A stretch of 13,958 nt of DNA from a virus. Positions 4,577-5,374 of this stretch are shown here, in pieces (position 1 is the stretch's first letter; every line of letters begins with the position of its first letter). A program made the position numbers and the translations under genes. The notes below the pieces were generated by a model. The model ran no database searches and had not been told where the DNA came from. It saw only the letters and a program-made list of their open reading frames with translations. The stretch lies in UHGV virus genome UHGV-0194130, one strand, 5' to 3'.

Positions 4577-5305
4577 TTACGCCACATTTGAGCCATGTAG
4601 CAGGTGTTGTAGTGCTTTAACGCCTTCAGAATTGTAGCGGAACGCCTCTACCTGTTTGCTGGAATGCGCCGATTTATCCAGGAAGAACTTCCCGTACTGC
4701 TCAGTTTTGAGGTTGTTTGCGTTAGCAATGCGACCAATCTTGTTGGCCGTTACTCCAAGCTGCTCTGCAACCTCCCCTGCTGAGTAGTAATGCTCTTCTA
4801 TTGCCGGAAGAGGTATTGCATTAAAACCAACGAGCGGGTTGATTATGCTTGCTGCAGCAGTCTGCTTTGCTTCCGGCGCAAGATTTGGCATCAGATCGAA
4901 CAGATTGGTAACAGCTTCAACCGTCATTTTCAATGTTCGCGCTTGACGATACTCAACAAGTCCACTCGCTGATTTACCGCTTTTAATGTGCGCTTCTTGC
5001 ATACTTTCAAGTTGGTCTACCAGTGAGCGGCGAACGGCTTTTGACTCGCGAGCGGCAACTCGCAATGCTTGCTTGATTGACATCTCAATGATAACCATCG
5101 AAGTTTTGTTCGCTTTTTGCACTACACTTTTTGTGTAGTGCTCTCCATCCAATTCATCTTCAATTTTCTCGATGAATTTGTTATTACGAACCTCCGGCTC
5201 ACCGCACTGTCTACGAGCCTGATTTACCATCTCAAGCAGGCGCTGGCTGTCAATGGTTTTATCCGTGACAACGGATCCGATGTTTGCTACATTCTTAAAA
5301 GTCAT
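4577..5305 (-). CDS. Antirepressor-like protein (Rha/AntA-like N-terminal region, KilAC/ANT-like C-terminal domain), 242 aa
   Basis: Start re-called at the ATG at 5303..5305 (MTFKNVANIG..), preceded by AAGGAA with 6-nt spacing; the ORF-track start at 5356 is rejected. The C-terminal YYSAGEVAEQLGVTANKIGRIANANNL..GVKAL resembles the KilAC domain of phage antirepressors. Confidence 0.75.
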   Translation of the reverse strand: MTFKNVANIGSVVTDKTIDSQRLLEMVNQARRQCGEPEVRNNKFIEKIEDELDGEHYTKSVVQKANKTSMVIIEMSIKQALRVAARESKAVRRSLVDQLESMQEAHIKSGKSASGLVEYRQARTLKMTVEAVTNLFDLMPNLAPEAKQTAAASIINPLVGFNAIPLPAIEEHYYSAGEVAEQLGVTANKIGRIANANNLKTEQYGKFFLDKSAHSSKQVEAFRYNSEGVKALQHLLHGSNVA

Positions 5306-5374
5306 TAGGCATTCCTTATGTGGTAGTAAGGGTGTGACATAGGCCGCCAGCAGCACACTGGCGGTTTTCTTTTT
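5300..5374 (+). ncRNA. Candidate sar-like antisense RNA (about 75 nt) covering the ant-like RBS and start codon
   Basis: Plus-strand promoter-like elements GTGACA (5265..5270), 17-bp spacer, TACATT (5288..5293). A plus-strand intrinsic terminator follows: stem CCGCCAG (5344..5350) / CTGGCGG (5358..5364), loop cagcaca, then TTTTCTTTTT (5365..5374). It is antisense to the minus-strand operon and sits where P22 encodes sar. Confidence 0.35.

Follow-up and report, generated by a model that had tools for sequence, protein, structure and literature searches.

Probable antisense control of a second antirepressor-like gene in a P22-like prophage

Whether a prophage is induced or stays silent is decided by antirepressors, whose action can extend in trans to other prophages that the cell contains. 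For antisense control of such a protein, the textbook example is the sar RNA of phage P22, which is usually treated as a single family of P22 and its close relatives and was reportedly worked out by Liao et al. (1987), Wu et al. (1987) and Schaefer & McClure (1997). In phages P1 and P7, the c4 RNA blocks antirepressor synthesis by pairing at the translation-initiation region of icd-ant. The present analysis concerns the window, i.e. the whole 13,958-nucleotide (nt) stretch of the viral genome UHGV-0194130 to which all coordinates refer, and within it a plus-strand element at 5265–5374 named cassette B, the second of two sar-like cassettes. Probably, this element constitutes a complete cis-antisense RNA gene in itself, with the architecture of P22 sar and with the antirepressor-like gene Ant2 as its target. 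The antisense design of P22 sar is experimentally established and sar acts as an RNA, according to the literature cited in two reports (PMC2629481, PMC13397905). Comparison of homologous loci indicates that cassette B is real and under selection, and that it is a sar-like cis-antisense regulator of an antirepressor gene with a sequence family of its own; its production of an RNA and the resulting translational repression we infer from the analogy with sar.

As in P22, the cassette lies in the immI region ('ant moron') of a P22-like phage, antisense to the ribosome-binding site (RBS) region of an antirepressor-like gene. It has its own sigma-70 promoter of the extended -10 type (TGC-TAnnnT) within the first codons of the target, convergent with a Pant-like promoter, and an intrinsic terminator in the upstream intercistronic spacer, while the cis-antisense RNA is predicted to be about 70 nt in length, to cover the RBS and to consist of a 5′ stem-loop followed by the terminator hairpin. 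Conversely, no sequence or covariance-model similarity between the two was found in either direction, the target belongs to phrog_1726 and is not P22 Ant, and the RNA is predicted to begin 3–5 nt inside the coding sequence and to cover the start codon, whereas P22 sar begins at -1. Furthermore, the -35 hexamer of cassette B is the better one (GTGACA as opposed to GTGTTA in P22), and the cassette is the second in an operon that already has a sar-equivalent before its first antirepressor gene, Ant1; it is also known here from sequence alone. The c4 RNA of P1 and P7 is processed from the target's own transcript and pairs in trans with short upstream sites, being neither convergently transcribed nor fully complementary and lacking a promoter and terminator of its own. 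SymR/symE and lambda OOP/cII share with cassette B small RNAs that are fully complementary to their targets and have their own promoters and terminators, but their sequences, targets and contexts are unrelated, and OOP overlaps the 3′ end of its target rather than the RBS.

The features of cassette B and of its target are as follows (SD, Shine–Dalgarno; MFE, minimum free energy):

5265–5270, plus strand: -35 hexamer GTGACA, within Ant2 codons 12–14 (consensus scan)
5285–5293, plus strand: extended -10, TGC (5285–5287) and TACATT (5288–5293), within Ant2 codons 5–7 (consensus scan)
5300–5374, plus strand: predicted antisense RNA 'sar-like B', about 75 nt, predicted 5′ end at A5300, predicted 3′ end in the U-tract
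5301–5340, plus strand: 5′ domain of the RNA, holding the anti-SD sequence UUCCUU (5312–5317) (MFE structures of 18 homologues)
5342–5366, plus strand: terminator hairpin, stem GGCCGCCAG (5342–5350), loop CAGCACA, stem CTGGCGGTT (5358–5366) (terminator scan)
5365–5374, plus strand: U-tract TTTTCTTTTT (read from the sequence, and terminator scan)
5303–5317, minus strand: target site, SD sequence AAGGAA (5317–5312), 6-nt spacer and ATG (5305–5303) (sequence)
4577–5305, minus strand: Ant2, 242 amino acids (aa), antirepressor-like (phrog_1726 'anti-repressor', E = 7e-101)

The initial annotation had proposed a plus-strand promoter-like site, GTGACA-17-TACATT, followed by a hairpin and terminator that would work in the antisense direction only. 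The consensus scan places this promoter at 5265–5293, with nine of 12 consensus matches and a 17-nt spacer that ends in TGC and thereby supplies the TG of an extended -10. The predicted +1, A5300, lies 7 nt past the -10 and complements the wobble T of Ant2 codon 2, which is invariant among the homologues described below. All elements described are present, with small corrections needed at two coordinates. The hairpin and terminator lie at 5342–5374; the G+C-rich stem of 9–10 base pairs (bp; 10 pairs, six of them G-C, and a 7-nt loop in the scan) is followed by a U-tract on the transcribed strand, as in a rho-independent terminator. It was called on the plus strand alone, while in the same scan a hairpin at 4537–4558 was called on both strands. 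Both AAGGAA and the ATG of Ant2 lie within 5300–5374, in agreement with the claim that the predicted RNA covers the RBS and the start codon. This RNA is predicted to fold into two domains (-25.1 kcal/mol, z = -2.8 relative to shuffles), its 5′ end (the anti-start-codon GUCA) being paired with the UGAC directly before the terminator. The possibility of a small open reading frame within the RNA was rejected, as AUG-UGG-UAG is the only one present. The RefSeq annotation has no RNA feature at cassette B.

The promoter is conserved at synonymous sites of Ant2

Homologues of Ant2 were gathered from reference genomes and viral contigs, and 19 representatives less than 93% identical over the first 180 nt, spanning Escherichia, Serratia, Pantoea, Citrobacter, Kluyvera, Buttiauxella, Proteus, Xenorhabdus and others, formed the set in which wobble positions were assessed. 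Only eight of 59 wobble positions were invariant (codons 2, 5, 6, 7, 12, 13, 16 and 57), and five of these fall exactly on the promoter: in the -35 (codons 12 and 13), the TG (codon 7) and the -10 (codons 5 and 6). A sixth, in codon 2, corresponds to the predicted +1. The hypergeometric probability of finding all five promoter wobbles among the eight invariant ones is approximately 1e-5. In the spacer (codons 8–11) and just outside the -35 (codons 14 and 15), wobble positions vary, with 1.3–1.9 bits; for the spacer wobbles and the 'n' positions of the extended -10, the values are 1.5–1.9 bits.

The manner in which the individual codons are constrained follows the promoter elements. Codons 5 and 6, which encode the -10, read AAT or ACT and then GTA or TTA, yielding TAnnnT on the opposite strand; codon 6 specifies Val or Leu, yet is GTA or TTA without exception, and the 'n' positions that vary are the two least conserved positions of a -10. 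Codon 7, which is GCA or ACA throughout, supplies the extended -10 with its TG, and the first base of the codon, which varies, corresponds to the 'n' of TGn. In the -35, the wobble of codon 12 (T in all 19 homologues) corresponds to position 6 of GTGACA, and codon 13, with C at its wobble, to positions 3–5. The pattern G[TC]GACA-N14-TGnTAnnnT was matched by each of the 88 loci that have this N-terminus (88/88).

The terminator and the fold are conserved on the antisense strand

A hairpin followed by a T-run was present on the antisense strand, and the T-run confined to it, in all 42 distinct leaders (42/42), which adjoin at least eight different upstream sequences. Across 20 sequences, the 9-bp terminator helix was paired in 98.3% of cells, and three of its nine pairs had changed on both sides (CCGCCAG/CUGGCGG, CCGAUAG/CUAUCGG and CCAGCAG/CUGCUGG); the covariation score exceeded that of 500 out of 500 shuffles and of all slid registers. 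G.U pairs in the stem occurred on the antisense strand alone, as in locus L010, where the sense strand would instead carry an A.C mismatch, and the antisense strand was the more stable one in 19 of the 20 sequences, by 4 kcal/mol on average.

The RNAs of the homologues are predicted to be 62–78 nt long with the same layout as that of cassette B. All are predicted to adopt the two-domain fold, and the closing stem of the 5′ domain is kept in 17 of 18 individual MFE structures, with the compensatory variants CUCA:UGGG (L010) and GCAU:AUGU (L031 and L103). Alignment of the homologous leaders with MAFFT followed by RNAalifold recovered the terminator helix alone, and no 5′ domain, because the leader between the 5′ closing stem and the terminator is highly variable and rich in indels; the 5′ stem was judged from individual folds, which carry less weight than covariation assessed column by column.

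The 20 B-type sequences served to build a covariance model, which scored the element of the window at 79 bits and, outside the training set, a second cassette of Salmonella phage SPN3UB, located before another antirepressor-like gene, at 44 bits. It additionally identified nine antisense cassettes (L015–L020, L023, L026 and L029 being included) at the 5′ ends of genes that are antirepressor-like, differ in their N-termini and had likewise not entered the model; every one of these cassettes has a promoter of its own embedded in the gene. Homologues with a different N-terminus (L035, L036 and L110–L113), which were inspected by eye rather than scanned, lack the antisense hairpin and T-run, and a promoter pattern was not evident on the same inspection in L035 and L036. 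L110–L113 (at about 2440–2500), which have a GTG start and the N-terminus VVNNIAN, carry a sense-direction hairpin and T-run upstream of the gene; since they are devoid of the antisense terminator, the cassette is not universal. Promoter and terminator are present together or absent together, and this behind many different flanking genes. Based on these comparisons, the promoter and terminator of cassette B are under purifying selection.

Several additional features of these spacers were observed. A second small hairpin, GCGCC-GTCC-GGCGC, occupies 5375–5388, immediately following the U-tract and a short way past the stop codon of Ant1; its variants (GGCGCATGGGATGGCGC) accompany upstream genes of the Ant1 type and are absent where another gene lies upstream, and it could be a 3′-end stabiliser or a processing site for the Ant1 cistron. 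In L051, L068, L088, L091, L098 and L100–L102, which represent one upstream context, a third arm precedes the A-run (CTGGCGGTG-AAAAAAA-CCGCCAG) approximately 60–85 nt upstream of the Ant2 ATG, and the left arm of the terminator could there have two alternative pairings in an attenuator-like, three-arm arrangement. The terminators of L025 and L007 have identical stems with a reverse-complemented loop (CAG-TTACAG-CTG as opposed to CAG-CTGTAA-CTG), which looks like a hairpin inversion between the arms of an inverted repeat. Mosaic joints map to the cassette: the stretch similar to SPN3UB extends from 5343, in the terminator hairpin, to 6034, where both the Ant1 ATG and the 5′ end of the first cassette's RNA lie, and that similar to Klebsiella phage phiKp_30 stops at about 5415. 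An additional role of the conserved hairpins may be to serve as recombination linkers that join modules of the ant moron.

Ant1, the first cassette and the relation to the sar family

The initial annotation placed the element after an inserted Bro-N gene; this gene is not an insertion that displaced sar. The gene with Bro-N and P22_AR_C domains, Ant1, is itself, on domain and sequence comparison, an Ant homologue with a sar-equivalent of its own at about 6033–6107 (cassette A); cassette B is hence a second cassette before a second gene and not a relocated sar. The corresponding features are:

5394–6032, minus strand: Ant1, 212 aa, Bro-N and P22_AR_C (Pfam), PHROGs 'anti-repressor Ant', annotated as Ant in SPN3UB
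5997–6026, plus strand: antisense promoter of cassette A, TTGGAA-18-(TGC)TACAAT, within Ant1 codons 3–12 (consensus scan)
About 6033–6107, plus strand: cassette A ('sar-like A'), predicted RNA of about 75 nt with two hairpins, located like P22 sar in the arc-ant intercistronic region

The true ATG of Ant1 is at 6032 and not at 6116, as judged from the sequence and from the 639-bp coding sequence in Escherichia phage JEP4 and in RefSeq. In the arc-ant spacer, a strong hairpin of cassette A precedes ACUAUUUUU; the cassette has a predicted fold of -33.3 kcal/mol (z = -5.7) and a 5′ stem, GUUAGU/ACUGAC, that resembles the GUUGGU/ACUGAC of P22. Among 27 diverged A-type representatives, the wobbles of Ant1 codons 3, 4 and 11 are invariant or nearly so, a synonymous-site constraint on the promoter like that seen for cassette B, and the A-type family is conserved. 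In SPN3UB, the Ant1 gene is 95% identical to that of the window and is preceded by a sar that is Rfam-positive at 48 bits. Although cassette A is neither annotated nor detected by the Rfam sar family, RF00262, its position and sequence features identify it as the true positional equivalent of P22 sar.

Cassettes A and B share the same design and operon, the SD sequence AAGGAA, the -10 TGCTACAnT and the 8-mer CTATGTCA after the hairpin. SPN3UB is organised alike, with its Rfam-positive sar before the Ant1 gene and a B-type cassette before a second antirepressor gene. The hairpins, leaders and target genes of cassette A and the SPN3UB sar nevertheless differ from those of cassette B.

No match to RF00262 was obtained in the window, sub-windows included, either at the gathering threshold (43 bits) or at E ≤ 10, while the positive controls P22 (sar annotated at 15021–15090 of that phage) and SPN3UB scored 97.8 and 48 bits, respectively; membership of cassette B in this family was rejected on this account. 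The parallel with sar drawn in the initial annotation is supported for design and layout and does not extend to family membership. The Rfam search as a whole returned chance-level matches alone, to SgrS (13 bits, site B) and to SymR (22 bits, site A), the latter sub-threshold match reflecting a common two-hairpin shape only. The B-type model, in turn, matched neither P22 sar nor site A, and in a direct alignment across all cassette types the extended -10 was the sole common feature. These comparisons indicate that cassette B is a sequence family separate from sar and sar-like in design, which may yet share ancestry with P22 sar or with site A. A full-text search of the literature found papers on the sar RNAs of P22 and epsilon34 and a description of 'ant moron' diversity, but none that describes a sar-like RNA occurring second or in tandem.

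The target gene and the organisation of the ant moron

The target had been described as 'ant-like', which is appropriate insofar as Ant2 falls into phrog_1726 ('anti-repressor') and its AlphaFold2 model (mean predicted local distance difference test score, pLDDT, 69) resembles KilAC-type phage antirepressors in BFVD, with E values down to 3e-9. It is, however, not an orthologue of P22 Ant, a candidacy rejected as Ant2 has no Pfam domain and P22_AR_C is found in the upstream Ant1 instead. Ant2 had no match in the Pfam, NCBIfam or PDB sequence searches, and a Foldseek comparison of the model with the PDB gave weak winged-helix or MerR-like matches in the C-terminal domain. In 73 of the 88 loci, Ant2 lies directly downstream of a gene of the Ant1 type.

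The region represents the ant moron (immI) of a P22-like (Lederbergvirus) prophage of E. coli, between the DNA-transfer genes and the tailspike. Positions 4500–6200 are 94% identical to phage JEP4, and parts match phiKp_30 and SPN3UB. Of 5,426 complete E. coli genomes, 84 contain a match to a 191-bp probe around cassette B, at up to 100% identity. Carriers of the element include phage JEP4 (MT740315) and E. coli 55989 (NC_011748), ACN001 (NZ_CP007442) and MS1657 (NZ_CP135957). On the minus strand, the order is DNA-transfer genes, the plus-strand gene at 6391–6774, the Pant-like promoter, the arc-like gene, Ant1, Ant2, the terminator, the plus-strand Mnt-like gene and the tailspike, as follows:

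6391–6774, plus strand: divergent Arc/Mnt-like gene encoding a longer Arc-like protein, phrog_3178 (PHROGs)
6321–6348, minus strand: Pant-like promoter TTGACA-16-TAAATT, driving arc-Ant1-Ant2 (consensus scan)
6106–6279, minus strand: arc-like gene, 57 aa (Arc-like PHROG matches; RefSeq 'Arc family DNA-binding protein')
4537–4558, both strands: bidirectional terminator common to the ant operon and the convergent Mnt-like gene (terminator scan)
4263–4550, plus strand: P22-Mnt-like gene between Ant2 and the tailspike, phrog_795 (E = 7.5e-37), the closest homologue of P22 Mnt
2502–4160, minus strand: tailspike (gene assignment)

The Pant-like promoter is convergent to both antisense promoters, and the consensus scan detected no sense-strand promoter or terminator between it and position 4558. 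It is flanked by the inverted repeat ACCAACTT ... AAGTTGGT (6298–6354, minus strand), and the palindrome GGTTCTAGAACC (6320–6309) lies just downstream of its -10; these are candidate operators of the Arc or Mnt type.

Proposed mechanism and alternative explanations

In the mechanism proposed here, the sigma-70 extended -10 promoter (GTGACA-17-TGC-TACATT) embedded in Ant2 codons 5–14 would direct transcription from near A5300 across the start codon and AAGGAA, ending at the Ant1-Ant2 intercistronic terminator. The product, a two-hairpin RNA of about 75 nt, would have perfect complementarity to the Ant2 translation-initiation region of the Pant-derived arc-Ant1-Ant2 mRNA. Pairing of the two RNAs would block ribosome binding, and the duplex might be cut by RNase III. 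Synthesis of Ant2 would thus be held down when Pant is weak, off or repressed, be it in the lysogen or late in infection, and the antisense promoter may itself be weakened by the transcription that converges on it from Pant. The core of the initial annotation, a sar-like cis-antisense RNA with its own promoter within the 5′ end of the target, a terminator functional on the antisense strand alone and overlap with the RBS and start codon, is strongly supported by the comparative evidence.

A number of observations weigh against this interpretation. Promoter-like sites are no more frequent in the window than expected from shuffles (5 versus 5.5), the nine of 12 matches of cassette B being ordinary in this respect, while terminator-like sites are in slight excess (5 versus 2.9 expected) and a promoter-terminator pair over a start codon would, by a rough estimate, be expected about 0.03–0.06 times per window. 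Because these motif frequencies are near chance, cassette B as seen in the single sequence is suggestive only, and support beyond chance comes from the comparison with related loci. In that comparison, the -35 overlaps the conserved Val13-Thr14, so that part of its conservation reflects protein constraint and only the two -35 wobble sites count as independent evidence. Mosaic recombination joints fall on the conserved hairpin, too, and could be part of the reason for its conservation. The anti-SD sequence is base-paired in the MFE fold of the window element, whereas P22 sar displays it in a loop, and pairing kinetics could differ accordingly from those of P22 sar; the predicted folds of some homologues (L005–L009 and L012) do present it in a loop. 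The start site, 3′ end and abundance of the RNA are predictions, and Ant2 is termed antirepressor-like on the strength of family labels and a medium-confidence model.

The hairpin and T-tract might instead act as a terminator or insulator for other plus-strand transcription, e.g. read-through from the Mnt-like gene at 4263–4550, with the promoter-like hexamers arising as a by-product of coding sequence and no discrete small RNA being made. A plus-strand gene is indeed present downstream of Ant2, the promoter-like site does not stand out from chance expectation in the window, and its -35 overlaps the conserved Val-Thr codons; however, the Mnt-like gene possesses its own bidirectional terminator at 4537–4558, the synonymous sites of the -10, TG and -35 are invariant where neighbouring ones vary, and promoter and terminator occur, or are missing, as a pair behind many different flanking genes, and we consider this explanation improbable. 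Little credence is given to the idea that the hairpin functions in the sense mRNA, as an RNase III or RNase E site, as a stabiliser of the Ant1 3′ end or as a mask of the Ant2 RBS, the sense-strand A-run being incidental. Watson-Crick covariation is strand-symmetric and would fit such a role, the sense leader also folds (-32.6 kcal/mol, z = -2.4) and the small hairpin at 5375–5388 adjoins it, but all 42 leaders have their T-run on the antisense side, G.U pairs are tolerated in the antisense orientation only, the antisense form is the more stable in 19 of 20 sequences, and the selected promoter inside Ant2 would be left unexplained. A sense-strand role and an antisense RNA are not mutually exclusive, as one hairpin could do both jobs.

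The antisense promoter could also act by transcriptional interference with Pant, through collision or occlusion, the RNA being a by-product. In the immI region of P22, the convergent Pant and Psar are reported to interfere mutually, and in the window the promoter of cassette B and the Pant-like promoter are likewise convergent, about 1 kb apart. Nevertheless, a transcript that ends approximately 75 nt downstream leaves little scope for collision, a strong terminator and a two-domain fold maintained by selection would be needless for pure interference, and P22 sar acts as an RNA according to literature cited in PMC2629481 and PMC13397905; interference as the principal mode of action appears hardly probable. 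Finally, a chance co-occurrence without function accords with the single-sequence motif counts, which are near the shuffle expectation, but is very remote, being effectively refuted by the comparative data, in which the cassette is conserved across genera with both covariation and synonymous-site constraint.

Implications and flanking sequence

The data suggest that the sar-like design is modular and widespread in prophages of the Enterobacterales. A second antirepressor-like gene would be guarded by a second family, unrelated in sequence to sar, which has a sar-equivalent as its tandem partner in 73 of 88 loci, and similar cassettes precede still other antirepressor-like genes. All of these cassettes are missing from the RefSeq annotation and escape Rfam; the present alignment and model could serve to define an Rfam-style family, and prophage annotation and models of induction should include such RNAs. 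Additionally, the synonymous-site signature permits a clean design of promoter-down mutants in which the protein is unchanged.

A further generalisation, which we regard as speculative and rather unlikely, is that each antirepressor of enterobacterial ant morons carries a private antisense cassette that travels with the 5′ end of the gene in mosaic recombination, the diverging leaders setting specificity groups of the RNAs. Such a private cassette would comprise a promoter in the first 15 codons or so, a hypervariable leader and a conserved terminator. If this were true, the leader groups would resemble plasmid incompatibility RNAs, and the RNAs of a resident prophage would silence the antirepressors only of those incoming phages with a matching leader. 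An RNA layer would thereby be added to immI heteroimmunity, and tandem cassettes would allow independent control of two antirepressors from one operon.

At the left end of the window, beyond the tailspike, a gene of the IS605-family OrfB/TnpB type (1–1131, minus strand) runs off the window, and a PEBP/YbhB-like gene is located at 1240–1716 on the plus strand; positions 1–1716 are probably host or insertion-sequence DNA flanking the end of the prophage.

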